This document shows positions 9,948 to 60,484 of a DNA stretch of 64,000 nucleotides, in pieces. Position 1 is the stretch's first letter, and every line of letters begins with the position of its first letter. The DNA comes from Gemmatimonadota bacterium (GTDB lineage: Bacteria; Gemmatimonadota; Gemmatimonadetes; Gemmatimonadales; GWC2-71-9). The notes beneath the pieces were generated by a model, which was not told the DNA's origin, searched no databases, and was given only the letters and a program-made list of their open reading frames with translations. The stretch is taken from assembly GCA_009692115.1 (NCBI GenBank), contig SHZU01000004.1:138275-202274 (forward strand), given 5' to 3'. The position numbers and the translations under genes were made by a program.

Positions 9948-9982
9948 CCCGAGCGCCGAGTGCCGAGCCCCGCGTGCCGAAC
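9948..9982. repeat. tandem heptanucleotide repeat, 5 units (CCCGAGC GCCGAGT GCCGAGC CCCGCGT GCCGAAC)
   Basis: Read directly. It is the reverse complement of the CTCGGCR unit found at four other loci. It lies in the kinase/lon divergent intergenic region. Confidence 0.8.
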
Positions 9983-9993
9983 CTGAGGACCCC

Positions 9994-12531
9994 ATGACCG
10001 ACCGAATCACCATTCCAGTTCTCCCCCTGCGAGAACTGGTGCTCTTTCCCGGAGTAACCACCCCGATCGGCGCCGGCCGACCCGGCACCGTCCGGGCCAT
10101 TGAAGCAGCGATGGCCACGCCGGACAAATTGATTCTGACCCTGTGCCAGCGCGAAAACACCGAGCAGGTGAACACCGAAGGGCTGTACACCATCGGAACG
10201 ATCGCGCGGATCGTCCAAGTGCAGCGCGGGCTCTCGGGCATGCAGGTGCTCCTGCAAGGCGAACGGCGGGCGATTGCCCTCCACCTGACCGACCGCGATG
10301 GCGCCCTCGAGGCTATTGCCGTCGATTCCGAGGAGTTGGCGCCGCTCAATCCCGAAGACCCCGCCTTCGTCGGCCTCTACCGGGAGGTTCGCCAGCGGGC
10401 CGCCGAGTTGGGCCACAAGTCCGGGCTCCCCGAGGAAGTCGTTCAGCAGGTGCTTTCGAGCACCAACGAGCCGGGCCGGTTTGCCGACTTGGTGGCCGGC
10501 TACATCGATGTCCCAACCACCCAGCGCCAAGCCCTCCTCGAGACCCTCTCAGTCGAAGAGCGGCTCCGCCGGGTGCTGGTTCAGGTCCAACGCCAGATCA
10601 CCGTGCTCGACGCCCAGGAGGAGATCAAGTCGCAGGTCCAGGAAGAGCTGGGCGAGCGGCAACGGGAAATGGTCCTCCGCGAACAGCTGAAGCAGATCCG
10701 CAAGGAACTCGGCGAAGAAGACGAAGCCGATGAACTCGAGGAACTCCGGACCAAGTTGCTCGCCCTCGAGTTGCCGCCGGAGGCCCGCAAGGAGGTTGAT
10801 CGGGAACTCGCCCGCCTGCAACGGATCGGCCGCGAGTCAATGGAGACCCAGGTGATTCGGAACTACCTGGAGACGGTGTCGGAGTTGCCTTGGAGTAACC
10901 GGACCGAGGAACACCTCGACCTCAAGGCCGCGGCTGATATTCTCGAGGCCGACCACTACGCCCTTGGCGACGTGAAAGACCGGGTCCTCGAGTTTCTCGC
11001 GGTTCGCCAACTCAAACAAGCCGAAGAGCAAGCCTCGACCGCTGAGGCGGCCGCCCGCGAGGTGAAGCTCGACGAGGCCGAGTCGACTGGTGTCACGATG
11101 ACTGGTGAGTTCGAGCCGGCAAAACTAGCCCCCAAAACCGCCGCCGCCGGCAACACCGACGACAAAGCCCGCGGGCCCATCTTGCTGTTCATCGGACCTC
11201 CCGGCGTTGGCAAGACCTCCGTGGCGAAGTCGATTGCCCGGTCGATGGGCCGAAAATACGTCCGGATCTCGCTGGGTGGCGCCCGGGACGAAGCCGACAT
11301 TCGCGGTCACCGCCGGACCTACATCGGCGCGATGCCCGGCCGGATCATCCAGGGCCTCAAACAGGCGGGAACCAAGAATCCGGTCTTCCTGCTTGATGAA
11401 GTCGACAAGCTTGGCGTCTCCTTTCAAGGCGACCCGGCCTCGGCCCTGCTCGAGGTCCTCGATCCGGCGCAGAATGACAGCTTCGTCGACCATTATCTTG
11501 GGGTCCCGTTCGACTTGTCCGAAGTCCTCTTCATCTGCACCGCGAATTTTGTCCAGAACATTCCGGGCCCGTTGCTCGACCGAATGGAGAGCGTGGAGTT
11601 CTCGGGATACACGGAGGGCGAGAAGCGAATCATCGCGCAGAAGTACCTGATTCCCCGGCAGCTCGAAGAGAATGGCCTGGCCGGCAAGAACGTGACCGTC
11701 GCCGACGAAGCCCTGAAGGACGTCATTAGTGAATACACCAGGGAGTCCGGTGTCCGCCAACTGGAACGCGAGATCGGCAAGTTCTCACGCAAGGTGGCCC
11801 GGAAAATCGCCGCGGGTGACATTGTCGGCCCCGTGGTCGTGACCAAGGAAATGGTCGATGACTGCCTCGGCCGGCCCCGGGTTCACCCCGAGAAGATGGC
11901 CGGCGAAGATCAGGTCGGCGTCGCCACCGGGATGTACTACACTCCGGTCGGGGGTGACATCATGTTCGTGGAAGCCTCAACGATGCGGGGCAAGGGCGAA
12001 CTGGTGCTGACCGGACAGCTTGGCGACATCATGAAGGAATCCGCGCGAGCGGCGTGGACCTATTCACGGTCCCATGCGGCGGGGCTTCGGATCCCCGATG
12101 AGATGTTCGATCGCGACCTCCACATCCACGTCCCCGCGGGAGCGATTCCAAAGGACGGTCCGTCCGCCGGGATCACCATGGCCACGGCCCTGGTATCCGC
12201 CTTGTCGGGGCGGCCGGCCCGACACGATATCGCGATGACCGGCGAAATCACCCTCCGGGGGCGCGTGCTGCCGATCGGCGGGCTCAAGGAGAAGATTCTC
12301 GGGGCCACCCGCGCCGGTATCTTCACCGTCATCATCCCGAAGGACAACGAAGCCGACTTGGTGGATTTGCCCGAGGAAATCCGAAAGAAAGTGACGATCC
12401 ACCCGGTCACCGAGCTCGGTGAGGTGTTGGCGTTGACGCTCCGGGGCGCGTCGTTCAAGGAGGGGCGGCTACTCTTTGGAGACGATAACCCCCGGGACGT
12501 GACGCCGTTGTCGGTGAGCTACCCGCACTAG
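9994..12531 (+). CDS. lon: ATP-dependent Lon protease (LonA type)
   Basis: ATG 9994 gives [20 protein letters not shown], a Lon N-domain start. Walker [34 protein letters not shown], protease serine in [15 protein letters not shown], and [19 protein letters not shown]. The track ORF start 9643 is an in-frame upstream extension. Confidence 0.95.
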
Positions 12532-13049
12532 CTGGCCACGACGAATTGATCGCGCCCTGAAGATTTCTGCCGCAGTGGTGCCATGGTCCGGGGAGCAGGC
12601 CACCCCGGCACTCAACCAAACCGTGACCGACGAACCCCCGATCGGGCACGGATTGCCGCTGACAGCCGCCCGGACTTTCTCGGCCACCCGGGTGGCGTCC
12701 TCCACCTGGCACCGGCGAACCAAGATGCCGAACTCTTCGTCCCCCCCATCCTGGCGACCGGATCGACCGACGAGGGGGTGGCAACCAACACCACCGAAGG
12801 CGGCCGCGCCGGTCCGGGGGACGCCCAGGCACTGATGACCGAGGCGAAATCCGCTTCGGTGCCACCCAGGATCACGGCCACGTCGGGTCGGGCGGACACC
12901 GGGATGTCCATAGGCGCCAAGCTGAGCGGCTTTCGCTGGACCGCATACTGGGCATCGGCCAAGGTGGTCTCGACATGGTCGGCGAGGTCACCCGATTCTC
13001 CGAGAAGAAGGGCTTGCCATCCAAAGGCTCGAGGCTTGGGTTGCCCCAT
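12469..13049 (-). pseudogene. degenerate GGDEF-domain gene interrupted by a frameshift at a G7 homopolymer
   Basis: Two minus-strand frames must be joined. The first is 13049 to about 12745 (...RPDVAVILGGTEADFASVISAW...SSVDPVARMGG). The second is about 12741 to 12469 (DEEFGILVRRCQVEDATRVAEKVRAAVSG...VTVWLSAGVA...). The junction is C7 on the + strand (12741-12747), and an eighth G would restore ...VARMGGDEEFGILV... Spacing matches a GGDEF domain, but the conserved N-terminal-half residues are replaced. Confidence 0.45.
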
Positions 13050-13218
13050 TTGCGGAAGACCGAGCGCCGCGGCGCCCTGATCGAAAATCGCCGCCAGGTC
13101 CGAGATGGCGGCCTCGAGGTGGGCGCCCCCCAGCCGGATCCGGCAGAGGATTCGCGACGATCCATCGCCTCCGCGAGATATTCGCGCCGGAGTTCCCCGA
13201 AGAACTAGGCCGCGCCGC

Positions 13219-13905
13219 TCACTGCGGGGATCGAAACGACTGGATGATGGTTCGAGCGGCGGCGATGAACACCGGGTCGGTGCCCCAGTGCCCGCCGACC
13301 TGATCGCCGGTCCGGCCCGCGATGATCGCTCCCCGGTCGTCGACGACGAACAGGATCGGCTCGCCCGGCCAGGCCGTGCCTTCACGGATCAGCTCGACGC
13401 TGGCAAACGGAAGCTCGACCGGGGCCGGCGCCAACAACACGATCCCGACGCCGGTGGCACTGGCCTTCCGAAGCGCCGGCACGAGGGCGGGGTAGCCGTC
13501 GGCGGGAATCACCAGGGCAACACTCTGTTGAGCCCGGGCAATTTCATGGGAGAGCAGTTGGAGCGCCCCTCGAGCCGAGTTGAGTTCCACCAACGTCGGA
13601 CTGGGCGGAACCGAAATCCCCGCCAGCACCGCGGAGAGCGTCTCCAGCGATTGCCCCTGCGAATCGATGATTCGGGCCACCAGGGTGGCCGGCGGTTCGG
13701 GCCGATATCGCTTTGGCCGCCCTTCCTCGGCTCGGGCGGCGCCCTTTTGTACTAACCCCTCCAATGCGCTGTAGGCATTGGCCCGGGCCAGGCCGGCCGA
13801 TCGGGCAATGGCGTAGCCCGTTCCCGGCCCCCCGCGGATCAACGTCTCGTAGACCAGGCTCTCGGTCGGGGTAAATCCGAATCCGGTGAGGTCGAGCGAA
13901 GCCAT
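13219..13905 (-). CDS. TrmB-family transcriptional regulator
   Basis: N-terminal winged helix LTGFGFTPTESLVYETLIRGGPGTGYAIARSAGLARANAYSALEGLVQKG, followed by a TrmB-type C-terminal domain. It lies 7 nt downstream of the preceding gene on the same strand. Confidence 0.8.
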   Translation of the reverse strand: MASLDLTGFGFTPTESLVYETLIRGGPGTGYAIARSAGLARANAYSALEGLVQKGAARAEEGRPKRYRPEPPATLVARIIDSQGQSLETLSAVLAGISVPPSPTLVELNSARGALQLLSHEIARAQQSVALVIPADGYPALVPALRKASATGVGIVLLAPAPVELPFASVELIREGTAWPGEPILFVVDDRGAIIAGRTGDQVGGHWGTDPVFIAAARTIIQSFRSPQ

Positions 13906-13912
13906 TGGTTCG

Positions 13913-25992: not shown

Positions 25993-26008
25993 TGGCACAA
26001 GCCTCGCT
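25993..26008 (+). promoter_or_regulatory. candidate sigma-54 (-24/-12) promoter upstream of the small secreted protein gene
   Basis: TGGCAC-aagcc-TCGCT lies 39 nt upstream of ATG 26047. A 16-nt near-palindrome ATCGACTTACGTCGAT (25978-25993) abuts it. Confidence 0.3.
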
Positions 26009-26046
26009 ATTACCGGAGCCCGGAGACGCTTCAACCGGAGGACACC

Positions 26047-26409
26047 ATGTTCGCTCGTCGCATTGCCCTGATGGTTGGATTGGTCGGCCTCGGCGCCGAT
26101 CAGTCCGGTTCCGCCCAGCGGGTTTCCGCTGACATCCATATCGGCTCCGGTCCGGTTGGCGCCACGATCCGGCTCGGCGATCGCCCGGACTATCGGATCT
26201 ACGGCCGCCCGCGCCGGGCCTATGCCGAGGTGGTTCGTCCGGTCCGAGTGTATCAGGATGACCGGCGGTTCTACCGCTATGACGACTTCGATCGCTACGA
26301 CCGGGATCAGCGCCGTGGGAACGACCAGGGCCGGGGCGACCGCGACCGGTACTACAAGCGCAATGGTAACGGAGACGAGAACCGGTGGGAGCACGACCAC
26401 CAGCACTAG
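26047..26409 (+). CDS. small secreted protein with Arg/Asp/Tyr-rich low-complexity C-terminus
   Basis: GGAGG upstream of ATG 26047. Signal peptide MFARRIALMVGLVGLGADQSGSAQ. The tail is RRFYRYDDFDRYDRDQRRGNDQGRGDRDRYYKRNG...HDHQH. Family not recognised. Confidence 0.6.
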   Translation: MFARRIALMVGLVGLGADQSGSAQRVSADIHIGSGPVGATIRLGDRPDYRIYGRPRRAYAEVVRPVRVYQDDRRFYRYDDFDRYDRDQRRGNDQGRGDRDRYYKRNGNGDENRWEHDHQH

Positions 26410-26510
26410 TCGAGCATCATGGTAGTAAGGGTCAGCCAACCCTTCCTCGTTGAGCCCCCTTGCTCAAAATACCGGCTGACTCAGGAGACCCGAGGCTCCC
26501 AGCCGAGGGT

Positions 26511-26542
26511 ACAAACAACCCTGCGACGGCGGGGTTGTTTGT
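26511..26542 (+). terminator. stem-loop (11-bp stem ACAAACAACCC/GGGTTGTTTGT) followed by TTT; likely intrinsic terminator
   Basis: Read directly. It lies about 100 nt downstream of the small-protein stop and is immediately followed by heptamer repeats. Confidence 0.5.
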
Positions 26543-26543
26543 T

Positions 26544-26564
26544 TTCGGCGCTCGGCGCTCGGCG
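26544..26564 (+). repeat. tandem heptanucleotide repeat, 3 units (TTCGGCG CTCGGCG CTCGGCG)
   Basis: Read directly. Same unit family as 31327-31362, 52655-52689, 60400-60417 and 9948-9982. Confidence 0.75.
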
Positions 26565-28834: not shown

Positions 28835-31402
28835 TTGCGCCCGATCCGAGATCACAATCTTCCGCCGGACCCGGCGGCGTACCGGGCGGCGCGGCCCAAG
28901 GGCCGAGTGATTGTCATTGCCCCGACCCGGGCGGCTTGTGAGACGATCGAACTTGCGCTCGGCTCAACGTTCGAGACGCTGCTGATCCGGGAGCACGGCC
29001 AAGAATTGGTGGCCTGGGCTGAGGCGCGGAAGGGCTTCGGAATCGTGGCCGGCACCGGGACCGGGAAGACCCTGTCGGTGCGGCTCTTTGCCGAGGCCAT
29101 CCTCGGGGAATCGCTCCGCTACGGAGTGGTCAATCGTGAGCGGGAGGCCACACCCGAGACGCCGTTCTGGAACGTCATCGTGGCGACGACCGGGATTGCC
29201 CGGCGGTGGTTTCAGGACGAGCTGATCACCGCCGCGGATACGCTGGTGGTCGACGAGATCCACCAGACGTCGGCGGAGCTTGAGTTGTGCCTGGCCCTCG
29301 GCAAGCGGGCCGGTTGCCGGTTCATCTGGCTCAGTGCGACGGTCGATCCGACGTTTTACGCCAGTTACCTCAAGAGCGATCACGTCCTCGAGACCTCGGC
29401 GTTCGATCCGGCATTGAAGGCCCGGGTTCACGTCATGGCGAAGGACACCACCGAATTCTTCGACGACCGGACCATCAAACGATTGATCCGGGAACGCCGT
29501 GGCGTCGCGGTCTTCGTGCCGACCCGGGCCGAAGTGGAACGGTTGGCCGCCGAGTTGGGAGCCAAGTGGCCCGGACTGACGGCGGCCTTCTATCACGGTG
29601 GCGAACCGATTCGGGTCATTCGTCCCTTCCTTGAAGGCCAGGTCGACAAGCCGTTCCTGCTTGCGATGACCGCGGCCGGGCAATCGGCGCTCAACCTGCC
29701 CGGCCTCGACACCGTGGTGATCTACGATGCCCGGTACGGCAACGTCGTCGACCGGGGGCGGAATGTGCTGCACCGGTTGTATTTGGGTGCCAACGAAATC
29801 CTCCAGATGGCGGGCCGGGTTCATGGCAGGGTGGCCAACGGCGAGGTGACCATTCTGTCCGACCGGCCCCTTCGGTTCGAGGATCTTCGCCCGACGCCGC
29901 CGGAATTCCAGCTGGCCGGCGATGCGGAGCGGGTCGCGCTGACGTGCGCCGCCATGGGAGTGGATGCCGCCGACCTCGAACTGCCGGTGCCGCTCGATCG
30001 AACCGCGTATCGAAAGTCAGTAGCGCTATTGACGGAGCGCGGCCTCATTGCCGGAGGCCGGCTCACAAAATATGGCCGCGATGTCGAGGCGATGCCGGTC
30101 GAGCGCTGCTGGGGCGAGCTGCTGGTCAGCAGCGAGCCGGACTTGGCCCCGATGCTGGCGGTCGCCTCGGCGGTCGATTCGACCCATCGGATGACCCGGG
30201 AGGAACGTGACCTCCGCGGCGTCGCCATTCAGGGGAGCGACCACCTGACGGCGTACAACATCTACGCTGAGGCGGTGAACCGGTTCGGCGTGGTGGGCGA
30301 GGTTCATGGACTCGAGCGCCACGGATTCGAGGAAGGGATCGCTGAGTGGGCGGAGGAGCGAGGGGTCTTGGTCAAGGCGATCGAGGATGCCGCGATGGGG
30401 ATGGCGTCGGTCTACCGCTCGCTCGAATTGAAATTGCCGCGGGGGCTTCCCTACGTCAGCAAGGAACTCAAGAGCCAGTTCGCCGACTTGGTGGCCCGGG
30501 TGATGCCGTTCGATTTGGTGATTGACGAACGGACGGCGGATGGCCAAGAAGCGCGGATTGGGAAGCGGTCGTTCGCGGGCAACTGGGGCGCGGTGGCCGG
30601 GTCGCTCCGGTTCTTTGCCGACCGGTTCGGGGTGCCGCGCGCGTCGGTCGAGGGGACGACGATCTCGTACGATCAGGTTCGTCAGTACGCGAAACGGGGC
30701 GAACCTGAGGTCACCGTGAGCGGCTCGCGGAAACATCAGCGACTGCTGGTGGGCCACACCTTGTCGTATTTTGGGTTTGACCTCGAGACGATCCGGGAGC
30801 CGTTGCCGGATCTGATTCCCGAGGCCCTCCGTCCCACCGCGATGAATGCGCTGATCGATGGCGTCATCGACGGCAGCATTAACCACCCCGACCAAGGCAA
30901 GATTCGGCGAGCGGCGCGGGAGCTCGAGGAGTATTGGCGTCGGTCCGGAGGCGTCCTCGCAGCGGCCAGCCCCGACGGGGTTCGTCGCGCGGTTTCCGCT
31001 CAGCTCGAAGGCGTCACCAGCTGGTCGGATTTCATGAAGCGGCGCCTGGAACTCGATCCGGCCGATCACATCGCACTGGAACAGCGGGTGGCGTTGGATC
31101 AATTGCCCGCCACCGTGCGGTTGTTTGGCGACGCGACGGCGATCGAGTACGATATCGATCGGGGGGTTGGGGTCGCCCGGCTTCGGCTTCGGGAGGGTCA
31201 GGCCCGGCGGATGACGGAGGATGATCTGCCGGTGGTGGACCGGCCGCTCCGTTTTCAGGTGCTTCGCGGAGAGGACCCGCCGATCGAGGCGGAAACGTTG
31301 GCGATGTTGAAGGGGTTGATTAATGGCTCGGCGACTCGGCGCTCGGCACTCGGCACTCGGCAGAATCAGCAGCGGCATCAGCGGTCTCGGAGGAGACGAT
31401 GA
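28835..31402 (+). CDS. DEAH/HrpA-like ATP-dependent helicase (atypical)
   Basis: Motif I AGTGTGKT, motif II VVDEIHQTS, SAT-like LSATVDP, then FVPTRAEVE and QMAGRVHGR. Long C-terminal region. The last roughly 25 codons are encoded partly by heptamer repeats. The stop overlaps the next ATG (ATGA). Confidence 0.8.
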   Translation: MRPIRDHNLPPDPAAYRAARPKGRVIVIAPTRAACETIELALGSTFETLLIREHGQELVAWAEARKGFGIVAGTGTGKTLSVRLFAEAILGESLRYGVVNREREATPETPFWNVIVATTGIARRWFQDELITAADTLVVDEIHQTSAELELCLALGKRAGCRFIWLSATVDPTFYASYLKSDHVLETSAFDPALKARVHVMAKDTTEFFDDRTIKRLIRERRGVAVFVPTRAEVERLAAELGAKWPGLTAAFYHGGEPIRVIRPFLEGQVDKPFLLAMTAAGQSALNLPGLDTVVIYDARYGNVVDRGRNVLHRLYLGANEILQMAGRVHGRVANGEVTILSDRPLRFEDLRPTPPEFQLAGDAERVALTCAAMGVDAADLELPVPLDRTAYRKSVALLTERGLIAGGRLTKYGRDVEAMPVERCWGELLVSSEPDLAPMLAVASAVDSTHRMTREERDLRGVAIQGSDHLTAYNIYAEAVNRFGVVGEVHGLERHGFEEGIAEWAEERGVLVKAIEDAAMGMASVYRSLELKLPRGLPYVSKELKSQFADLVARVMPFDLVIDERTADGQEARIGKRSFAGNWGAVAGSLRFFADRFGVPRASVEGTTISYDQVRQYAKRGEPEVTVSGSRKHQRLLVGHTLSYFGFDLETIREPLPDLIPEALRPTAMNALIDGVIDGSINHPDQGKIRRAARELEEYWRRSGGVLAAASPDGVRRAVSAQLEGVTSWSDFMKRRLELDPADHIALEQRVALDQLPATVRLFGDATAIEYDIDRGVGVARLRLREGQARRMTEDDLPVVDRPLRFQVLRGEDPPIEAETLAMLKGLINGSATRRSALGTRQNQQRHQRSRRRR
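31327..31362 (+). repeat. tandem heptanucleotide repeat, 5 units (CTCGGCG a CTCGGCG CTCGGCA CTCGGCA CTCGGCA)
   Basis: Read directly. It lies inside the 3' end of the helicase ORF, 37 nt upstream of the next gene's ATG. Confidence 0.85.
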
Positions 31403-50649: not shown

Positions 50650-50651
50650 CG

Positions 50652-51500
50652 ATGGCGGCTGCCCAAAGGCGATTGGCCCTGATGACGGTCTTTCTGCCCC
50701 GTGAAGATCTGTTCTTTCTCGACGATACCACCTCGCCATCGGGTTCGGGCACGTCTTCCTCTACGACAGCCGCGGCAGCCGGTACCTCGACAACGGCAAC
50801 AGCCTCGAGATCACGGCTCGCAACAAACGGGGCGAGGAGGTCTATCGCCTGCTGGCCCACCTGGATGACGCGGCCGTTGCCCGGGAAGTCGATCGGTTGG
50901 TGTTGCCATTCGAACGGGGCGGCCTCGTCACCAGGATTTCGTGGCAACCGCGCGATGCCGAGGGGCGGATTACCTACGGGCAGGCGGCGGCGTTCCTGGA
51001 TTACGGGCGCCAGTTTCGGCGGGAAAGTGAGTGGACGTCGTTCACCGATCTCGATGAATTCGTCGTGCCGGTCCGGTACCCGGGTATGCCCGAAGTCCTC
51101 GACGAGCTTGCCCGGAGGAAGGTCACATATGTACGAATGCCGCAGCGGTGCTTTGCCTCGCGCTTCGACGACAACGGGCAACCCGTTCCAAGGGTCCTGA
51201 ATATCGCCAAGTGTTCAGACTGGGTGGCGCCCTCGTTCGGCCCCAAGGCCTGGATCAGAAACGACACCCTCCGGACCCGATGGTCCGGACGGTTCGACTC
51301 AACCCACTCGCCCGCGGCAAGCGGCCGGACGGGGGATCGGCTTTTGGAGCCCGAATTGCTCCGGTTCAACCACTACAAATTCAATCGGTGGGAGTTGGAT
51401 TGGGTGGCCACGAACCTCGGGCACCCGCTCATGCTCGATTGCGAAGACCGGGGCATGGAACGGTTTGCACCGGCAATGGCCGGGCTCGACCTCTGCTCAG
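50652..51500 (+). pseudogene. GT92/DUF23-like glycosyltransferase, frameshifted near its 5' end; 3' end undefined
   Basis: ATG 50652 opens MAAAQRRLALMTVFLPREDLFFL. The conserved body (RRYHLAIGFGHVFLYDS..., FTDLDEFVVP, LLRFNHYKF) is in the -1 frame from about 50702, and that frame has no start before 50897. It then runs without a stop to 52006, across the convergent GT2 gene. The end coordinate is approximate. Confidence 0.45.
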
Positions 51501-52348
51501 CTCGGAGACCGCCGCCGAAACCAATATCGGAAGGCCCCGCCCAACTCGGCGACGGTGTGAGGAATAGAACGGATGGCCGATCGAACCCAGGCCCTGAGAT
51601 AGGCCCGCCGAAGCCGCGGGTCGAGCAGGCATTTGGCGTAGTACGCGCCCCGGCCTCGGCTGTACTGATACCGGAGCCGTCGCTGGGCCGGCTCGGTCAG
51701 CCGATCGTGATCGTGCACCACTTTGGGCCGGGGATCGTACGCTCCGCGAAAGCCCGCCGCCGCCAGCCGCGCAATGACCTCGACATCTTCGGCCGGGAAG
51801 GCCGTCCCCGCCCCGAACTCCGGGTCGAATCCGCCAATCTGATCGAGCGCCACCCGGCGAATCGCCATGTTGGCGCCCGGAATCAGGCCCGCGGGGACGA
51901 ACCCTGGCGCGCCGACTTCGACCCGGTACGATCGAGTGACGGCGGCCACGCCCGCGTGGGCCGGTGTGGCGGGCAGGAGTTGCCCGCCGATGAACGAAAT
52001 GCCTGAGTCGGCGAAGCAGGCGCGAACGGCCGTCGGCAGGTCTTCGGCGGGATAGCAGTCGTCGTCGGTGAACAAGACAATGTTCCCGGTTGCCATCCGC
52101 CAGCCGACATTCCTGGCGGCGCCAAGTCCAACCCCGGCGGTTCGGGCCGCCTGAAACCGGCCCCGGAAACCCTCGGCGGCCCGCGCCATGATCTTTGGGG
52201 TATGATCGGTCGAGCCATCGTCGACCACGATCATGCCGAGGCCGGGGTCGTCGAAGAGTTTGGCCCAGTGCGCCAGCGTCCGGTCCAGTCCGGCGGCCCG
52301 GTCCCGGGTGCAGATCACGACGGCGATCTGGCCTAACGCCAGGTCCAT
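51497..52348 (-). CDS. family 2 glycosyltransferase
   Basis: IAVVICTRDRAAGL, MIVVDDGSTDHT, FTDDDCYP and GANMAIRR. Confidence 0.85.
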   Translation of the reverse strand: MDLALGQIAVVICTRDRAAGLDRTLAHWAKLFDDPGLGMIVVDDGSTDHTPKIMARAAEGFRGRFQAARTAGVGLGAARNVGWRMATGNIVLFTDDDCYPAEDLPTAVRACFADSGISFIGGQLLPATPAHAGVAAVTRSYRVEVGAPGFVPAGLIPGANMAIRRVALDQIGGFDPEFGAGTAFPAEDVEVIARLAAAGFRGAYDPRPKVVHDHDRLTEPAQRRLRYQYSRGRGAYYAKCLLDPRLRRAYLRAWVRSAIRSIPHTVAELGGAFRYWFRRRSPS

Positions 52349-52358
52349 GGGGTCGGCG

Positions 52359-54014
52359 TCAGTTCGATCGGCGGGTGGCCTGATCCCGCCGCACGGTCAG
52401 GCGCTTGCCCTTGACCTTGGTGGCCCGGAGCGCCGCCACCACCGGGTCGATCAGCTCTTCGGCGAGTTCCACCAACGAGAATTTGTCGGTAATCTCGATG
52501 GCCCCGATCCGCTTTGCCTCGATCTTGGCCTCATTGACAATGGCCCCGACCAGATCCGCCGGCCGCATGTTGTCCTTCCGCCCCGCCCCCACGTAGATCC
52601 GAGCCATCCCGGCTGATTTCTGCCGCCTCGGCTCCCCGCTGGTCTTGTCCCCAGCCGAGTGCCGAGTGCCGAGTGCCGAGTGCCGAGCCTCAGGTATCTC
52701 GGTGTCGTCCCCGGCCCCCGCCAGATGGGCCAAATGCACTGCCGCGGCCGCGATGTCCATCACATCGTACTCGCCGGCTAACTGCTCGACGACGACCCGA
52801 TAGCCATCGAGCTTCCCGGCCACCAGCGCCTCCCGGATCGACGCCCGGGTGATTTCGAGCTTCTTGGCCCGCACATCAAGCACCGTGGGCAGCTGGGCCA
52901 CGTCGATCTTCTGGCGCGTCAGCTGCTCGATGCTCCGGAGCATCCGGTGCTCTCGTGGTTCGGCGAGCGTGATCGCGACACCCTCACGCCCGGCCCGGCC
53001 GGTGCGACCGATTCGGTGGACGTAGGCGGCCGGTGATTCGGGCACGTTGAAATTGACGACGTGGGACAGTTGGTCGATGTCGAGTCCGCGGGCCGCGACG
53101 TCGGTGGCGATCAAAAGATCGACCGCGCCGCTCCGAGTCCGTTTCATGACCCGGTCGCGCTGGGCCTGAGTCATGCCGCCATGGAGCTGCTCGGCCCGGT
53201 ACCCGCGGCCTGCCAGGCTTTCGGTCAGGCTCTCGACTTCGGTCCGGGTCCGGCAGAACACCAGGGCCAGCGTGGGCGATTCGAGATCGAGCACCCGGCC
53301 GAGGGCGGCCACCTTGTGGGCGCGGGCCAGGATGTAGGCCGTCTGTCTCACCTTCGGCATCGACCCGGGTGCCGCGACTTCACGGGCTAGGAGAACCCGA
53401 AGCGGATCCTTGAGGTGGCGTTCGGCGATTTTCGCGATCCGTGGAGGCATCGTCGCGGAAAAGAGCGCGGTTTGGCGTTCCTTGGGTGCCGCGTCGAGAA
53501 TGCCCTCGATTTCCTCCGCGAAGCCCATATCGAGCATCTCGTCGCCCTCGTCGAGCACGATGGCGGTCAAGCCGCTCAAGTGGAGCGTGCCGCGTCGCAG
53601 GTGATCGAGGGCCCGGCCCGGGGTGGCCACCACGACGTGGACGCCTCGGCGGAGGACGCGGATCTGCTGATCGAACTCCTGGCCGCCATAGATCGGCACC
53701 GTCGTGGCATGGATGGCCCGCCCGTAGCGATGAAACGCCTCGGCCACCTGCATCGCGAGCTCGCGGGTTGGCACCAGTACCAGCACCGAGGGATGGCCCG
53801 GTTTGGGCGCACCGGCCGGCAACCGCTGCAGCAAGGGGAGTGCGAATGCGGCAGTCTTGCCGGTTCCGGTCGCCGCTTGGCCCAGGACATCCCGCCCGGC
53901 CAGCAGGGGCGGAATCGCTTCCCGTTGGATTGGGGTGGGTTCTTCATAGCCGAGCGTGGTCAGGGCCTGGACGAGGGCGGGTGTCAGACCGAGGCTAGCG
54001 AACGAGGTTTTCAT
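52359..54014 (-). CDS. DEAD-box RNA helicase with C-terminal DbpA-type RNA-binding domain
   Basis: Q-motif region GYEEPTPIQ, AATGTGKT, PTRELA, motif II reading DEGD (53552-53541), SAT, RGLDI and HRIGRTGRAG. A linker containing heptamer repeats is followed by ...ARIYVGAGRKDNMRPADLVGAI... Confidence 0.9.
   Translation of the reverse strand: MKTSFASLGLTPALVQALTTLGYEEPTPIQREAIPPLLAGRDVLGQAATGTGKTAAFALPLLQRLPAGAPKPGHPSVLVLVPTRELAMQVAEAFHRYGRAIHATTVPIYGGQEFDQQIRVLRRGVHVVVATPGRALDHLRRGTLHLSGLTAIVLDEGDEMLDMGFAEEIEGILDAAPKERQTALFSATMPPRIAKIAERHLKDPLRVLLAREVAAPGSMPKVRQTAYILARAHKVAALGRVLDLESPTLALVFCRTRTEVESLTESLAGRGYRAEQLHGGMTQAQRDRVMKRTRSGAVDLLIATDVAARGLDIDQLSHVVNFNVPESPAAYVHRIGRTGRAGREGVAITLAEPREHRMLRSIEQLTRQKIDVAQLPTVLDVRAKKLEITRASIREALVAGKLDGYRVVVEQLAGEYDVMDIAAAAVHLAHLAGAGDDTEIPEARHSALGTRHSAGDKTSGEPRRQKSAGMARIYVGAGRKDNMRPADLVGAIVNEAKIEAKRIGAIEITDKFSLVELAEELIDPVVAALRATKVKGKRLTVRRDQATRRSN
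52655..52689 (-). repeat. tandem heptanucleotide repeat, 5 units (+ strand: GCCGAGT x4, GCCGAGC), inside the helicase coding region
   Basis: Read directly. It is translated as ...EARHSALGTRHSAG... Confidence 0.9.
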
Positions 54015-55461: not shown

Positions 55462-55875
55462 ATGATTCGAAGTTTGCACCATGCCACCGCGACGGTCTCG
55501 GGCGCCCAGGCCGACCTCGACTTCTATGTCGGGCTGCTCGGCCTTCGTCTGGTCAAGAAGACCGTCAATTTCGACAACCACCACGTTTTTCACTTCTACT
55601 ACGGGGACGAACGGGGAACACCGGGGACGATCATGACCACGTTTCCCTATGCGGACATGGGGGTCCGGGTGGGCCGGAAAGGCTCGGGGCAAATCACGGC
55701 GACTGGGTTTTCGGTCCCGGCCGGCTCGCTCGGCGTGTGGCGGGCGCGGCTCGCCGAGCATCGGGTGGCCGTCACCGGCGAGGGAACCCGGTTCGGGGGG
55801 CCGTTCTTGGGCTTCGACGACCCGTCCTCGTTGGCCATCGAGTTGATCGAGTCCGGCGCCGGTGCGCCGGACTAG
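55462..55875 (+). CDS. VOC (glyoxalase/ring-cleaving dioxygenase) family protein, single-domain length
   Basis: IRSLHHATATVSGAQADLDFYVGLLGLRLVKKTVNFDNHHVFHFYYGDERGTPGTIMTTFP resembles the N-terminal module of two-domain MhqO-type dioxygenases. The ORF stops after 137 aa, abutting the convergent gene. Confidence 0.7.
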   Translation: MIRSLHHATATVSGAQADLDFYVGLLGLRLVKKTVNFDNHHVFHFYYGDERGTPGTIMTTFPYADMGVRVGRKGSGQITATGFSVPAGSLGVWRARLAEHRVAVTGEGTRFGGPFLGFDDPSSLAIELIESGAGAPD

Positions 55876-58004
55876 GGCGTCGGACCCCGCTTGCCCATGT
55901 TCGCGAGCGCAAACGAAAAGACATCGGCCCGTTCCTCGATCGTCTTCGAGACCGGTTTGCCGAATCCGTGGCCGGCCTTGGTTTCGATCCGAATGTACGC
56001 CGGCCGCCGCCATGCCGTCGCGGCTTGGAGCGCCGCCGCAAACTTGAACGAGTGCCCTGGCACCACCCGGTCGTCGTGATCCGCGGTGGTGACGAGGGTG
56101 GCGGGGTAATCCGTCTCCGGCTTCAGATTGTGGAGCGGCGAGTAGGCCTTGAGAACCGGGAAGTGCTTCGGATCGTCGGCTGATCCGTACTCTGAAGCCC
56201 AGGCCCACCCGATTGTAAACTTGTGATAGCGGAGCATGTCCATCACACCCACGGCCGGAAATGCCACGGCCGCGAGGTCGGGCCGCTGGGTCATGGTGGC
56301 CCCGACCAAGAGCCCCCCGTTCGATCCGCCCTCGATGGCCAGGTAGGCCGAACTGGTGTACCGCTCGGCAAAGAGATACTCGGCGGCCGCCACGAAATCG
56401 TCGAAGACGTTTTGCTTCTTCTCGAACATGCCCGCCTCGTGCCACGCCTTGCCGTACTCCCCGCCGCCCCGAAGGTTCGGCTGGGCGTAGACGCCGCCCT
56501 TCTCGAGCCAGCCGATCAAGGCCGGATCGAAGGACGGGGTCAGGCTGATGTCGAATCCGCCGTAGGCGTAGAGGATCGTCGGGTTGACCCCGTTCTTTTC
56601 GAGATCGCGCCGGTGGGTGATGAACATCGGGACCCGGGTGCCGTCCTTGCTCCGATAGAATACCTGCTCGGTCTGATAACGGACGGGGTCGAACTTGAGC
56701 TTCGGCGCCCGGAACACCTCGGACCCACCGGTGCCGACGTCGTACCGGTAGATCGTCCCCGGCGACAGGAACGACGTGAACGCGTAGAACATCTCGGGGC
56801 GATCCGGATCACCGCTGATGCCGGTGGCGCTGCCGATGCCAGGCAAGCTCACCTCGCGGACCGGCCGGCCATCCCGTTCGAAGATCCTGACCGACGACTT
56901 AGCGTCGGCCAAATAGGTGGCCACCAACCGGCCACCGACTTCGAGAACTGACTCGAGCGCGTGGGGCTGCTCCGGAATCGTCTCCCGGACTGCCTCCGCC
57001 CCGGTTTTCCGAGTGTCGATGGTAATCACCCGGCTGCGCGGGGCATCGCGATCGGTCCGGAATTGGAACAGCGGCCCTTGATTCCCGATGAATCCATAGG
57101 CGGCGTCGGCCTGATCGAGGAGCCGGGCCACGGTACCGGTCACCTGGGGCCGAATCGGATCGGCCAAGTCGAGGTAATGAATTCGCTGCCTGGTGTCGGT
57201 ACCGACCCAGACGTTCATCACCAGATACCGGCCATCGTGGGTTACCTGGACGCCGAATCCCCAGTCGGGCTGATCCGGGCGCTCGTAGACCACGACGTCC
57301 TCGGCCTGGGTGGTCCCGATCTGGTGGTAGTAGACCTTCATGTCCCGGTTCTGCCCGACCATCGCCGAGCCGGCGGCCGGCTCGGGATACCTCGAGTAGA
57401 AGAACCCCTTGCCGTCCCTGGTCCAGGCGCCGCCTGAAAACTTGATCCACCGAAGATGGTCGGACAGGTCGGTGCCGTCGGCAACCCGGCGAACCTTGAA
57501 TTCCTGCCAATCCGATCCGCTGGCTGCGGTGGCGTAGAGCAGCAGGCTCCCATCGGGGCTTGGCTCCGTCAGCGCGAGCGCCACGGTGCCGTCGTCGGAC
57601 AGGCGGTTAGGGTCGAGCAACTCACGGGTGGTCCCGGTTCTCGCATCCTGTACATAGAGAACGGCTTGGTTTTGAAGCCCGCTGTTCCGGCTGTAGAAGT
57701 ACCGGCCGCCACGGTAGTAGGGCACGGAAAACCGCTCGTAGTCGTAGAGCTCGCTCAAGCGGCCCTTGAGGGCGTCGCGACCGGGGAGCGCCCGGAGGTA
57801 GTCGAAGGTGACCTGATTCTGGGTGGTGACCCAGGCCAGCGTCTCGGGGGCATCGACGTCCTCGAGCCACCGGTAGGGGTCGGCGACCTTGGTCCCGTGA
57901 TAGTCACCGACGGTGGCGCCTGCCCGGGTAACCGGGGGGCGCTTGGGCTGGGCAGCAAGCATGGAAGTGAGGCCTAAAAAAAGAAACAGCACCGGACGGA
58001 TCAT
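55872..58004 (-). CDS. prolyl oligopeptidase (S9A family)
   Basis: ATG 58004 gives signal MIRPVLFLFLGLTSMLAAQ (track start GTG 58016). N-terminal DPYRWLED, propeller, catalytic GGSNGGLLVGA, then DHDDRV and GHG. Confidence 0.9.
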   Translation of the reverse strand: MIRPVLFLFLGLTSMLAAQPKRPPVTRAGATVGDYHGTKVADPYRWLEDVDAPETLAWVTTQNQVTFDYLRALPGRDALKGRLSELYDYERFSVPYYRGGRYFYSRNSGLQNQAVLYVQDARTGTTRELLDPNRLSDDGTVALALTEPSPDGSLLLYATAASGSDWQEFKVRRVADGTDLSDHLRWIKFSGGAWTRDGKGFFYSRYPEPAAGSAMVGQNRDMKVYYHQIGTTQAEDVVVYERPDQPDWGFGVQVTHDGRYLVMNVWVGTDTRQRIHYLDLADPIRPQVTGTVARLLDQADAAYGFIGNQGPLFQFRTDRDAPRSRVITIDTRKTGAEAVRETIPEQPHALESVLEVGGRLVATYLADAKSSVRIFERDGRPVREVSLPGIGSATGISGDPDRPEMFYAFTSFLSPGTIYRYDVGTGGSEVFRAPKLKFDPVRYQTEQVFYRSKDGTRVPMFITHRRDLEKNGVNPTILYAYGGFDISLTPSFDPALIGWLEKGGVYAQPNLRGGGEYGKAWHEAGMFEKKQNVFDDFVAAAEYLFAERYTSSAYLAIEGGSNGGLLVGATMTQRPDLAAVAFPAVGVMDMLRYHKFTIGWAWASEYGSADDPKHFPVLKAYSPLHNLKPETDYPATLVTTADHDDRVVPGHSFKFAAALQAATAWRRPAYIRIETKAGHGFGKPVSKTIEERADVFSFALANMGKRGPTP

Positions 58005-58016
58005 GGTTGCCTCCAC

Positions 58017-59660
58017 CTAACGATTGAACCGAATTCGGAGCATCCGGCTGGCGCTGACCTCGAAGCCGTTGATCCGGCCGTCGGCGCCCCGGGTAAAGCG
58101 AACGAAGCTCCCATCGGCCTGATAGGCGTCTTTGATCCGGGGTTTCAGCTCGGATTCTCCGACGGCTCGGCCCTTGAGCATGGCCTTGCCCTTCTCGATC
58201 CGCACGGTCCAGATGGTTCCGAGCTCGGGGCTCGAATACGACCCGACCAAAGCTTGGAGGTCAGCGCCGGTCGAAGTATAGCCCGCGGTCTTGAGATAAG
58301 GACCTTGACTGGTGCCGAGGATCGAGAGGCTGAGGGCGCGGCGTTGGTCGCTGAACTGGAGTTCGACGGCCTGTCCCTGGTAGCTGAATCGATCCTCGCC
58401 GAGGGGGGTGAGCGGTAAAGGCCGACCCATGGCATGGGCTACGAGGCGGCCGGAGTCGGCGGTGATCTCGACGACCGACTGGAGCAGGTCGGCGTAGTAG
58501 AGCCCGAGATACGGGGCGGGGTCAATCTTGACTACCGGAGCGGCCGCTGGGGCACTGGGAGAGCCGGCGGCAGGAGCGGCGGGGAAGACGCCGGCCAGAA
58601 TCACATCGGCGACGTCGGTGGCCCGTTTCTGGGTGTTGGCCGTCCCGATGTTGCACGTCACCCCGATCGATACGCCCTGGTCTGGGAATCGCATCAACAT
58701 GGCGCGGTAGCCGGCCCACGCGCCCCCATGGTGGATCCGCCGGAGGCCCCGGTATTTGTCGACGAACAGACCCCGGGCATAACTCAGACTATCACCATTG
58801 TTCAGGGTGCCCCGCTGTTCCATTCGATCGATCAGCGCCTGACCGCCCACTTTGGGATCAGAGAAGTTGGCATCCCACCGGGCCAGGTCGAGGACGGTGG
58901 TATTCACCGCGCCATCGCCGGTCTGATCCCAATTCGACATATCGACCGTAAAGCCGCCGTTCGGTCCCGGACCGTAGGCCGTGGCGCGGTTTGGAAGGAT
59001 GGCGGTGTGGTCGTCCCGGAAGTGGGTCACGGCCATGCCCAACGGCGAGAAAATCCGCTCCTTGGAGAACTCGGTCAGCGTCCGGTTGGTGACCCTCTTC
59101 ACGATCGTCGAGAGCAGGAAGAATCCGGTATTGCTGTAGTCCCACCGGCTCCCCGGTTCGAAGTTCAACGCTCGTTGGGAAATGATGACGCCGAGCGCGT
59201 CGTCGTCGTTGGTGAAGTCTTCGAAGAAGTGTCCTGCCATGAACAACAGCCCGTTGTAATCTCGGAGCCCGCTGGTATGACGGAGCAGGTGATCGATGGT
59301 GATCGTCTTGCCATAGCCTGGGAGCTCGGGGACATACTTCCGGACGTCGTCGGCCAGGGACAGCTTGCCTTCGTTGGCGAGGATCACGATGGCGGCGGCG
59401 GCGAATTGTTTCGACGTCGACCCGATGTCGAACACCGTGGTCGGGCTGATCGGCACGCCGAGATTCAAGTCGGCCATGCCGTACCCCCTGGCAAACCGGA
59501 CCCGGCCCCGTTCGTAGACGCCGAGGGCGCAGCCCGGCGTGGTCGTGCCATACTCCTTGAAGACCGCATCGACTTTGGCCGTGTCGAGTTGGATCGGGGT
59601 CTGGGCGGCCAAGGCAAAGGGGAGGCTGAGCAGGACGGTAGTGGCGGTCACGATCTTCAT
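58017..59660 (-). CDS. beta-lactamase-family serine hydrolase with C-terminal extension domain
   Basis: ATG 59660 gives signal MKIVTATTVLLSLPFALAAQ. SxxK in FDIGSTSKQFAAAAIVIL, then YSNTGF and HHGGAWAGY. Clear paralogue of 43084-44709. Confidence 0.85.
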   Translation of the reverse strand: MKIVTATTVLLSLPFALAAQTPIQLDTAKVDAVFKEYGTTTPGCALGVYERGRVRFARGYGMADLNLGVPISPTTVFDIGSTSKQFAAAAIVILANEGKLSLADDVRKYVPELPGYGKTITIDHLLRHTSGLRDYNGLLFMAGHFFEDFTNDDDALGVIISQRALNFEPGSRWDYSNTGFFLLSTIVKRVTNRTLTEFSKERIFSPLGMAVTHFRDDHTAILPNRATAYGPGPNGGFTVDMSNWDQTGDGAVNTTVLDLARWDANFSDPKVGGQALIDRMEQRGTLNNGDSLSYARGLFVDKYRGLRRIHHGGAWAGYRAMLMRFPDQGVSIGVTCNIGTANTQKRATDVADVILAGVFPAAPAAGSPSAPAAAPVVKIDPAPYLGLYYADLLQSVVEITADSGRLVAHAMGRPLPLTPLGEDRFSYQGQAVELQFSDQRRALSLSILGTSQGPYLKTAGYTSTGADLQALVGSYSSPELGTIWTVRIEKGKAMLKGRAVGESELKPRIKDAYQADGSFVRFTRGADGRINGFEVSASRMLRIRFNR

Positions 59661-59906
59661 GGGCGACTCAGGATAGTGGTGACATTGGGATCGGCAGGGA
59701 GCCAATTCAATTGCGGATGAAGTCGCATGGTGACTGTAATGTGACGGGTTTCGCGCGGGTACGCGAGTAGGGGGAGTCGCGCCGCCATCGTGTCACGCTC
59801 GCAGTGCGAGCCAATTACTCGAATCGGGGTCACGATGGTCGACAGGTGACACACTGTCTGACGAAGTAGGCAGCCAAGGCAATGATACCAATGACCAAGT
59901 AGTGCG

Positions 59907-60484
59907 ATGGATGTGATTCGTTAGGTGACCGGCGCGACTTCCTGCGGCAAGCGGCGGGATGGGCGGCCGCGGTTGCAGCCGCCCTGGCGATTCCAGGACG
60001 GGCGGCGGTGGCGCTCCCGATCGGGGTGGCCATCGGCCGGCGGAATGAGGGGGGCGGTGGGGTCAACTACGCCCTCCCGCCCGCCGACGGGATCCTGATC
60101 GACAAGCCCAACGAGGTCATCGTGGCCCGGCATCAAGGGTCGGTGTACGCCTTCGCCCTGTCGTGTCCCCATCAGAACACGGTCCTCAGATGGTTGGCCG
60201 ACGAAGGCCGGTTTCAGTGTCCGAAACACAAGTCGCGCTATCAACCTGACGGCACCTTCATTTCCGGGCGGGCCACCCGAAACATGGACCGCCTGCTGAT
60301 CCGGCGCGACGGGGCCACGGTCGTCGTCGACGTGGATCACGTCTTCGAAAGCGACAAAGACCCGGCGGCCTGGTCGGCGGCTGTCGTCAAGGTTCAGGAC
60401 TCGGCACTCGGCACCGGTTGGGAGTGGCGGGTTGGGGCGCGGTGGGCTAACCTGAGGGCCTCACGACCATCCGGCGAGGTCTCG
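59907..60484 (+). pseudogene. Tat-exported Rieske [2Fe-2S] protein gene lacking an in-frame start and a stop (reads through into the S9 gene)
   Basis: The frame carries a twin-arginine signal (GDRRDFLRQAAGWAAAVAAALA) and the Rieske motifs CPHQN...CPKHKS. The only upstream ATG (59907, MDVIR then TAG) is in the +1 frame. The first in-frame start (GTG 60008) is after the Tat motif. There is no stop before the S9 ATG at 60485. Confidence 0.5.
60400..60417 (+). repeat. tandem heptanucleotide repeat, 2 units plus a partial (CTCGGCA CTCGGCA CCGG)
   Basis: Read directly. It lies between the Rieske domain and the S9 peptidase start. Confidence 0.7.

Follow-up and report, generated by a model that had tools for sequence, protein, structure and literature searches.

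Dispersed tandem CTCGGCR heptamer arrays in an uncultured Gemmatimonadota bacterium, a likely lineage-specific simple-sequence-repeat family

Five CTCGGCR arrays in a 64-kb Gemmatimonadota window

We analyzed a 64-kb stretch of DNA (positions 138,275 to 202,274 of contig SHZU01000004.1; hereafter the window) from an uncultured Gemmatimonadota bacterium, in which five loci carry head-to-tail copies of a 7-nucleotide (nt) unit, CTCGGCR, reading YGCCGAG on the opposite strand. The arrays lie just upstream of a Lon protease gene (array 1), behind a terminator-like hairpin upstream of a thioredoxin-like gene (array 2), at the 3' end of a gene for an HrpA-like helicase-related protein (array 3), within a gene for the DEAD-box RNA helicase DeaD/CsdA (array 4), and between the probable remnant of a Rieske gene and an S9 peptidase gene (array 5) (Table 1). 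As argued below, they are likely to be members of a lineage-specific, genome-dispersed family of heptameric simple sequence repeats (SSRs), maintained by slippage, in this Gemmatimonadales-like bacterium.

All five loci named in a preliminary description of this DNA were recovered at the same positions, and their period of 7 was found by Tandem Repeats Finder (TRF), which placed period-7 arrays at 9949-9980, 26545-26564, 31327-31362, 52654-52687, and 60399-60414. The window holds seven exact tandem-heptamer runs, four of which have the CTCGGCR unit. Searching for (CTCGGCR)2 with at most one mismatch gave 12 matches, all inside the five loci, compared to 0.45 ± 0.70 expected from dinucleotide shuffles, and none of 100 shuffles reached 12. 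Thus, tandem copies of the unit were far more frequent within the window than its composition predicts, and the earlier view of a dispersed tandem-heptamer family, rather than chance matches, was borne out. A search allowing two mismatches added only isolated matches at chance level, and there is no sixth locus in the window.

Compositional chance, or mis-assembly of a short-read metagenome-assembled genome (MAG), would be the simplest alternative. The G+C content of the window is 63 to 66%, CGCCGAG/CTCGGCG is present in 67 copies and is among its 25 commonest heptamers, and MAG assemblies can mis-size repeats. However, the excess of dimers over expectation, the length of the arrays (at most 35 nt, well under read length), and the presence of orthologous arrays in six independent assemblies (see below) speak against it; the last refutes it, and we consider this explanation almost certainly wrong.

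Three of the five arrays are non-coding, in a window of which 90% is coding (p = 0.0085); of the remaining two, one belongs to a C-terminal tail and one to an inter-domain linker. This agrees with the placement at gene boundaries and linkers described before. The window arrays are direct repeats and not palindromic, and no inverted partner array was found within 200 nt of any of them; array 2 faces a single GCCGAG hexamer only. Folding of the single arrays gave z-scores of -0.95 (array 1), +0.17 (array 3), and -0.64 (array 5), none of them significant, and -3.4 for array 4, which is within coding sequence. The unit has no run of three or more G or C. No Rfam match was obtained for the whole window at gathering thresholds, and a scan of the window for tRNA and transfer-messenger RNA found none. 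A reading as clustered regularly interspaced short palindromic repeats (CRISPR) or as a mobile element was rejected, as there were no spacers, no conserved internal sequence, and no transposase.

Table 1. Positions of the CTCGGCR arrays and associated features in the window
Feature	Position	Strand	Description	Basis
Ser/Thr protein kinase gene	7741..9684	-	647 aa by NCBI call; ATG at 9684, at least 263 nt from array 1
Sigma-54-like -24/-12 motif	9923..9938	+	TGGCACAGCGCTCGCT; directly upstream of array 1
Array 1	9947..9982	-	CTCGGCR on the minus strand; plus strand reads YGCCGAG	Shuffle-tested motif search, TRF
Lon protease gene	9994..12531	+	845 aa	Pfam LON_substr_bdg, AAA, Lon_C
Terminator-like hairpin	26511..26545	+	14 bp plus T-run	Folding z = -2.9
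Array 2	26544..26564	+	TTCGGCG CTCGGCG CTCGGCG	Motif search, TRF
HrpA-like helicase-related protein gene	28835..31402	+	855 aa; host of array 3
Array 3	31327..31362	+	CTCGGCG-A-CTCGGCG, CTCGGCA x3; five units, 1-nt spacer
DEAD-box RNA helicase DeaD/CsdA gene	52359..54014	-	551 aa; host of array 4	Pfam
Array 4	52653..52689	-	CTCGGCA x4 and CTCGGCT on the minus strand
Rieske [2Fe-2S] gene remnant (probable)	59891..60484	+		Pfam, comparison with the L201 ortholog
Array 5	60400..60417	+	CTCGGCA x2 and CCGG (partial unit); about 68 nt upstream of the S9 peptidase ATG (60485)

The arrays occur at orthologous sites in close relatives and vary there

The closest homologs of three further window proteins were all from Gemmatimonadales MAGs, and two Gemmatimonadota MAG loci aligned to the window at 86 to 88% nucleotide identity. 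A search of related genomes had been proposed in the preliminary description, and the unit was indeed found in relatives at 80 to 88% nucleotide identity, with arrays at orthologous sites. In all, the same arrays stand at such sites in six independent assemblies from different studies (the window and the loci here called L091, L201, L206, L208, and L209). The seventh base of the unit had turned over at every orthologous array. For the intergenic arrays, copy number varied between relatives, or the array was present or absent depending on the genome; an array upstream of a DJ-1/PfpI gene has six units in L208 and four in L209. The copy-number variation that had been named as a check was therefore seen among related genomes, at the non-coding orthologous arrays and not at the coding ones.

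More distant relatives, about 800 kb in total, were also sampled. No CTCGGCR arrays were found in 80 metagenomic contigs (706 kb) carrying DeaD at 57 to 76% amino-acid identity, nor in the loci L202 to L205 and L207, the last of which is syntenic (22.6 kb, about 72% identity).

Arrays inside genes keep their unit number

Array 3 is translated in frame as GSATRRSALGTRQ and forms part of the basic C-terminal tail of the HrpA-like helicase, the stop codon of which overlaps the start (31399) of a β-lactamase-family gene. In all relatives, the tail is basic, similar in length, and finishes with RRRR, and array 3 is therefore genuinely coding. Array 4 is read in frame as ARHSALGTRHSAG and belongs to the variable stretch that links the DeaD_dimer and DbpA domains; the linkers of 15 relatives cannot be aligned, are rich in K/R/P/G, and vary in length. 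Both coding arrays sit in segments that are unalignable and of low complexity in all relatives.

We compared both coding arrays with their orthologs. The DeaD gene of L091 has the same five units as array 4, with no changes at 30 core positions and changes at three of four seventh bases. The helicase tail of L206 likewise has the five units and the 1-nt spacer of array 3, with 0/30 changes in the core and 4/5 at the seventh base. Pooled, the core changed at none of 60 positions, compared to seven of nine seventh bases (Fisher p = 3e-8). The probability of seeing no change at 30 core positions is 0.002 at a background divergence of 19% and 0.025 at 11.6%.

A recurring peptide encoded by the arrays had earlier been pointed out. 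It follows arithmetically from a 7-nt unit, which in its three frames always yields LGTRHSA (or LGARRSA). Translation itself is demonstrable at arrays 3 and 4, while the third reported peptide, DSALGTG, is owed to the loss of a stop codon in the Rieske gene, as described next.

An apparent Rieske-peptidase fusion and frame switching

In L201, the ortholog of array 5 (TCGGGCG CTCGGCG CTCGGCG) is plainly intergenic; the S9 peptidase leader has two A-type units in the window versus two G-type units and one degenerate unit in L201. Codon 4 of the Rieske gene is TAG in the window and CAG in L201, and the Tat-type (twin-arginine) signal RRDFLR would thereby be lost. Conversely, the terminal stop codon, TAG in L201, is CAG in the window, where about 70 nt before the orthologous array are deleted. 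It is because of this stop-to-CAG change, together with the deletion, that the Rieske frame of the window runs through array 5 into the S9 peptidase. Among the best 120 S9 peptidase homologs (632 to 717 aa, most of them about 680 to 690 aa), none was fused to a Rieske domain. Judged by this comparison, the Rieske gene is probably a pseudogene, or the source of a spurious fusion open reading frame (ORF) in annotation, and the DSALGTG peptide is an accident of the decaying gene. Reassignment of TAG, to which the two TAG/CAG swaps might point, was considered and rejected, as the other long ORFs and the Pfam domains are intact under the standard code.

Seven not being a multiple of 3, gain or loss of a unit can in principle shift a reading frame, as was pointed out earlier, and the arrays could then be contingency loci at which genes (the helicase tail, DeaD, or the Rieske-peptidase pair) are frameshifted or fused to give heritable on/off phase variation. 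Array 5 would suit such a role in that its unit number keeps the Rieske frame open into the S9 peptidase and one unit more or less would bring a stop in frame within 60430-60455, and copy number does vary at non-coding orthologous arrays. However, both truly coding arrays keep their unit number in relatives at 12% and 19% divergence, they are placed in a 3' tail or an internal linker and not near a 5' end, and the host genes have housekeeping functions (DeaD, the HrpA-like helicase, Lon) and are not surface or restriction-modification genes. The Rieske read-through, moreover, is owed to the TAG-to-CAG change and the 70-nt deletion, a TAG also stands at codon 4, and fusions are absent from the 120 homologs. 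In phase-variable contingency SSRs such as those of Haemophilus influenzae, length changes, presumably caused by slippage, can shift the frame, and the repeats are situated in promoters or 5' coding regions of genes for surface or restriction-modification functions and differ from one close strain to another (PMC2651432); the coding CTCGGCR arrays differ in being length-invariant and in housekeeping genes. Phase variation by these arrays thus seems to us very unlikely. Across the relatives compared, nothing points to frame-shift switching: unit counts drift where an array is non-coding and stay fixed where it is translated.

Placement and orientation across the family

A scan for (CTCGGCR)3 in one genome per GTDB species gave at least 120 loci, a sample made up of loci with at least three perfect units, and 163 arrays were extracted from these and the window. 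All survey counts given here and in the following sections hold among the matches listed. Gemmatimonadota contributed at least 39 matches, Actinomycetota at least 18, Acidobacteriota (Thermoanaerobaculia and Vicinamibacteria) at least 17, Proteobacteria at least 15, Chloroflexota at least 11, and Phycisphaerae at least 7. One Gemmatimonadaceae MAG had at least nine loci, and three others had at least six, five, and four. Genes in the survey loci were called by a caller based on third-codon-position G+C (GC3). Applied to the window, it reproduced most of the ENA gene calls; some starts differed, and one call (50897-52006) was on the wrong strand.

The arrays were strongly biased toward non-coding DNA. 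Intergenic placement was seen for 121 of the 163 arrays (74%), compared to about 16% intergenic DNA (p = 9e-62), and for 45 of the 62 Gemmatimonadota arrays, compared to 9.6% (p = 2e-32). Upstream stops were a median of 28 nt away and downstream starts a median of 50 nt, and the modal array size, an ascertainment-biased value, was four units.

The preliminary description had proposed that transcripts uniformly read CUCGGCR. This was not upheld: array 1 reads YGCCGAG, the transcription of array 2 is uncertain, and intergenic arrays between co-directional genes were 30 sense and 40 antisense (p = 0.28). For Gemmatimonadota intergenic arrays, the numbers were 15 sense and 13 antisense. Within ORFs, we counted 27 sense and 15 antisense arrays (p = 0.09), and 13 and 4, respectively, when only Gemmatimonadota were considered (p = 0.049). 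The arrays therefore have no fixed orientation relative to transcription.

The Lon leader, the hairpin at array 2, and a possible RNA element

On the plus strand, array 1 reads TCCCGAG CGCCGAG TGCCGAG CCCCGCG TGCCGAA, i.e., three good and two degenerate units, and it ends 2 nt before the Lon Shine-Dalgarno (SD) sequence GAGGA (9985-9989) and 12 nt before the Lon ATG (9994). The pattern TGGCAC-N5-TCGCT of the sigma-54-like motif next to it has two matches in the window (9923-9938 and 25993-26008) versus 0.06 expected, and the motif upstream of Lon is kept in L208 and L209. Its position would imply that the Lon 5' untranslated region (UTR) is essentially array 1 plus the SD. It had previously been suggested that the array would fit the common orientation if it belonged to the 5' leader of the kinase gene. 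However, the array occupies the 12 to 47 nt upstream of the Lon ATG, and because it is close to the Lon ATG, SD, and sigma-54-like motif and far from the kinase ATG, we assign it to the Lon 5' leader, in which it reads YGCCGAG. The Lon-leader array has about eight units in L208 and about five in L209, the window having about five (degenerate), and in both relatives the last unit provides the SD (TGCCGAGGAACCCATG). A further CTCGGCR array, some 90 nt upstream of the kinase ATG, is present in both relatives, with about six units in L208 and about four in L209; the window is without it. Array 1, which adjoins the ribosome-binding site, may possibly influence Lon translation.

Several observations were made alongside in this region. 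An NCBI protein with the name 'MAG: Gemmatimonadetes bacterium' (the 647-aa form) matches the kinase at 100% identity. The minus-strand leader of the kinase gene (9685-9765, about 80 nt) has hardly changed in L208 and L209, where identity is otherwise about 80%, and contains a GTTGTTGCCGCAACAGC hairpin; from its conservation, we regard this block as a candidate regulatory leader. The second sigma-54-like motif (25993-26008) lies upstream of a small, secreted-looking ORF (about 26044-26409). In the first 16,000 nt of the window, GC skew is negative to about 12 kb and then positive, with a cumulative minimum near 8 to 12 kb; no replication-origin genes were noticed there.

The first unit of array 2 overlaps the T-run of the preceding hairpin, and 33 nt separate the end of the array from the thioredoxin-like gene (ATG 26598). 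Opposite the array, on the other side of the stem base, stands a single GCCGAG (26502). Given the position just past a terminator-like hairpin, it is uncertain whether array 2 is transcribed. The corresponding site of L207 reads TTTCGGGCGTTGCC, a seed without an array. A scan for consensus promoters and terminators at this locus gave no match, the 9-nt loop of the hairpin being beyond the limit of the scanner, and an Rfam search near the locus at E ≤ 1 gave only sub-threshold chance matches, the best being istR (25 bits, gathering threshold 45). Separately, we noted that the hairpin closes a non-coding block of about 110 nt (26437-26545), downstream of the small ORF ending at 26409, and that the block matches L207 8049-8167 at 86% identity, compared to about 72% elsewhere in the two genomes. 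This block could be a conserved 3' UTR, a small RNA, or the leader of the thioredoxin-like gene.

It could be hypothesized that the arrays are strand-specific RNA cis-elements, with CUCGGCR bound by an RNA-binding factor that regulates the neighboring genes, or, as a variant, that ribosomes are loaded at leader arrays with GCCGAG in the sense strand, which would be standby or SD-like sites. In the window, four of the five arrays share the orientation of flanking genes, a weak sense excess exists among the Gemmatimonadota coding arrays (13 versus 4), and the Lon and kinase leader arrays of the window, L208, and L209 all have GCCGAG in the mRNA sense, with the last Lon unit serving as the SD. 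A precedent is also available in the TAACTGA repeats found just upstream of start codons (PMC4679880). However, array 1 is antisense to the rule originally claimed, and the intergenic arrays show no orientation bias, either overall (30/40) or in Gemmatimonadota (15/13). The DJ-1 leader arrays of L208 and L209 are CTCGGCR-sense, so 5' leaders are not uniform. Furthermore, a terminator precedes array 2, single arrays lack structure (arrays 3 and 5, z from -0.6 to +0.2), and Rfam gave no match in the whole window. We therefore consider a role as RNA element improbable.

Inverted pairs form hairpins behind genes in related genomes

In related genomes, some arrays are arranged as inverted pairs, of which there were eight among the 62 Gemmatimonadota arrays and five among 24 Acidobacteriota arrays. 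The pairs make up about one quarter of the Gemmatimonadota arrays and are usually placed 1 to 13 nt behind a stop codon. Their predicted folds are near-perfect hairpins (L102, -70 kcal/mol, z = -10.8; L046, -58 kcal/mol, z = -9.4). The A/G variants are uncompensated between the arms, with an A-C mismatch and a G-U pair in L102, and the flanks of the pairs show no constant head. The order of the arms follows lineage, with CTCGGCR leading in 8/8 Gemmatimonadota pairs and GCCGAG leading in 5/5 Acidobacteriota pairs (Fisher p = 0.0008). As a separate observation, a Gemmatimonadaceae MAG locus (L113 6100-6700) contains a palindrome of about 600 bp with mirrored arrays in its arms (CCCTGGG x3, CTCGGCR x4, and GCGGAGAC x3).

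These pairs raise the alternative that the family consists of hairpin-arm modules, in which inverted pairs are selected as factor-independent terminators or mRNA 3'-end protectors and single arrays are half-elements or decayed pairs. This would resemble the repetitive extragenic palindromic (REP) sequences and bacterial interspersed mosaic elements (BIMEs). REP sequences are single imperfect palindromes with a conserved GTAG head, mobilized by REP-associated tyrosine transposases (RAYTs). The CTCGGCR pairs share with REP/BIME the character of short, GC-rich, hairpin-forming elements after gene 3' ends in paired inverted copies, for which roles in termination and mRNA stabilization have been proposed. 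REP/BIME elements are, in contrast, not tandem heptamers, and the window arrays are not palindromic and are without a partner arm; no RAYT gene was seen within the 64-kb window. The location and the folding of the pairs (z about -10) favor such modules, as does array 2, which prolongs the 3' base of a terminator hairpin with GCCGAG opposite, and other heptamers of the phylum share the design (see L202 below). However, the five window arrays are all without an inverted partner within 200 nt, some three quarters of the arrays detected stand unpaired, the A/G variants in L102 are uncompensated, and loops and flanks are not conserved. Taken together, we regard hairpin-arm selection as an unlikely, though not negligible, account of the family as a whole.

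Other heptamers in the phylum

CTCGGCR is not the only heptamer that forms arrays in these bacteria. A Gemmatimonadales MAG locus without CTCGGCR arrays (L202, 12076-12350) has a giant intergenic hairpin built from another heptamer between convergent genes: about 20 RGACTCA units, a loop of about 45 nt, and about 16 TGAGTCY units, with arms of about 130 nt, directly after an S9 peptidase stop. Upstream of DeaD in L157 (108-244), 11 GCGARCT units face six AGTTCGC units as an inverted pair. Arrays of heptamers other than CTCGGCR (GCGARCT, ACGGGAG, and AATGGGG) were noted in DeaD-bearing relatives at L157 108-244, L171 15-52, L195 1-82, L124 836-860, and L130 9892-9911. The three units examined, RGACTCA, GCGARCT, and CTCGGCR, each have exactly one position toggling between A and G. 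In 773 kb, tandem arrays with at least about 2.7 copies numbered 27 at period 7, one at period 8, three at period 9, and none at period 10. The heptamer is thus the favored period in Gemmatimonadota, and the unit differs by lineage.

Relation to described heptamer repeats

Cyanobacterial short tandemly repeated repetitive (STRR) sequences are heptamers, for example CCCCAGT, TTGGTCA, and CAACAGT in Calothrix and Nostoc. The likeness in format that was drawn earlier stands: like the arrays studied here, they are dispersed tandem heptanucleotides, mostly intergenic, with several families per genome. They differ in unit sequence, in being known only from cyanobacteria (mainly heterocystous ones), and in typically longer arrays, and there is no sequence or phylogenetic link to CTCGGCR.

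The best comparison is with the GGGAATC repeats of Xanthomonas (Rehm et al. 2015, PMC4692102), with about 185 loci, a mode of four units, and 89 to 93% intergenic placement, 28 nt from the upstream ORF versus 160 nt to the next. They include 70 convergent inverted pairs and show no strand preference, length variation at orthologous positions, and no preference for a functional class (PMC4692102). According to that paper, heptamers are over-represented among bacterial SSRs (Mrazek 2007, cited in PMC4692102), and slippage is proposed to be favored because seven bases correspond to the length of DNA that the active site of the polymerase holds (via PMC4692102). CTCGGCR shares with GGGAATC and with Nostoc GGGGA(C/T)T a 7-nt unit with one or two variable positions and, at many dispersed loci, arrays of mostly about four units (PMC4692102). 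The arrays are mostly intergenic and nearer the upstream ORF end, with no orientation preference, length or sequence variation at orthologous positions, and adjacent genes of all functional classes. Convergent inverted pairs with the capacity to form stem-loops, frequent in the published families, were seen for CTCGGCR in related genomes and not in the window. CTCGGCR is unrelated in sequence to these G-rich units and, lacking G3 or C3 tracts, is unable to form G-quadruplexes or i-motifs; its preference for four units can therefore not be explained by G-quadruplex formation. It also differs in its Gemmatimonadota host and in that two of the five arrays in the window are part of helicase reading frames.

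TAACTGA direct repeats are found in marine Beggiatoaceae and in some Cyanobacteria and Bacteroidetes, with about 170 sets per genome (MacGregor 2015, PMC4679880). Shared features are heptamer direct repeats (with two to six copies in a set), a patchy spread across phyla without an evident transfer mechanism, and the placement of some arrays within a few nt of start codons, as for the Lon leader array (PMC4679880). In contrast, TAACTGA repeats are overwhelmingly upstream of starts and in one orientation, with a single inverted repeat found (PMC4679880), while CTCGGCR arrays are mostly after stops, in both orientations, and often in inverted pairs, and only array 1 of the window is start-proximal. 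TAACTGA contains stop codons, and CTCGGCR is open in all six frames.

The opinion that this is not a described family holds for the unit, not for the class, which has been described in Xanthomonas, Nostoc, and Beggiatoaceae (PMC4692102, PMC4679880). In the searchable literature (about 8 million papers), we found no mention of the dimer string CTCGGCACTCGGCA or its complement and no relevant report of heptamer repeats in Gemmatimonadota. The CTCGGCR family belongs to the dispersed heptameric SSR class (long SSRs in the sense of Mrazek 2007, as cited in PMC4692102) by its tandem 7-nt units at many loci, its non-coding bias, and its orthologous length and sequence variation. The unit thus appears undescribed, the class is well described, and this is not a new type of system.

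Discussion

The comparisons above favor a family of SSRs that expand by slippage and persist where this does no harm. An array would start from a pre-existing seed of a very common GC-rich heptamer; CGCCGAG/CTCGGCG corresponds to the frequent codon pairs GCC-GAG and CTC-GGC and is also found in SD-like GCCGAGGA and in the bases of hairpin stems. Replication slippage, for which 7-nt units are known to be favored in bacteria, may then expand the array and continuously homogenize it, leaving the CTCGGC core constant and shuffling A-type and G-type units. A perfect core with a fast seventh base is what unit gain and loss in an array of two unit variants would be expected to produce. The arrays survive where a change of length is harmless, i.e., in intergenic DNA after stops and in 5' leaders, and disordered protein segments accommodate them only at a frame-preserving unit number. 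The frozen unit number of the two translated arrays, compared to drift elsewhere, is likewise expected from selection against frameshifts. The inverted pairs of related genomes, with hairpins directly 3' of genes, are plausibly terminators or 3'-end stabilizers. The five arrays of the window, which are unpaired, are probably not selected but tolerated; a possible exception is the array in the Lon leader.

Several points weigh against this view. Slippage is deduced from the pattern, and as a passive process it offers no obvious reason why, of many GC-rich heptamers that are equally common, only this one expanded. Neither the recurrence of CTCGGCR in distant phyla (Acidobacteriota, Phycisphaerae, Actinomycetota, Chloroflexota, and Proteobacteria) nor the lineage-fixed order of arms in the inverted pairs (8/8 versus 5/5) is explained by simple slippage. 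Purifying selection on a bound motif could equally account for a core that stays perfect at orthologous sites over about 20% divergence. Finally, the survey was ascertained, being limited to loci with at least three perfect units, and the crude gene caller makes its start-proximal distances and its sense and antisense counts approximate.

A different view, which we think rather unlikely, is that the heptamer arrays of Gemmatimonadota and other high-GC phyla are the product of an active, sequence-programmable process and not passive microsatellites. It would draw on the fact that each lineage has a unit of its own (CTCGGCR, RGACTCA, GCGARCT, ACGGGAG, or AATGGGG), with one A/G toggle in the three examined, and on the deposition of arrays after stops and in leaders, the frequent inverted pairs with their lineage-fixed arm order, and the perfect core over about 20% divergence. 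If true, it would imply a dedicated enzyme, for example one that nicks DNA or switches templates, or else an RNA or DNA ligand under selection. The arrays would then serve as a modular, evolvable system of termination or regulation, and through them the STRR problem, which is 35 years old, could be approached.

With the CTCGGCR arrays read as a slippage-maintained SSR family, the heptamer-repeat phenomenon (STRR, GGGAATC, and TAACTGA), known for decades without an accepted origin or function, is extended to Gemmatimonadota. Since CTCGGCR forms no G-quadruplex and yet has the same architecture as the Xanthomonas repeats, G-quadruplex formation is not needed for that architecture. In practice, such arrays create spurious ORF extensions and fusions in MAG annotation, as in the apparent Rieske-peptidase fusion, and they could be used as strain-typing markers. 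For the biology of the family, a conserved core, a seventh base that turns over, and a unit number frozen only where the array is translated make up a clean signature of slippage filtered by selection.

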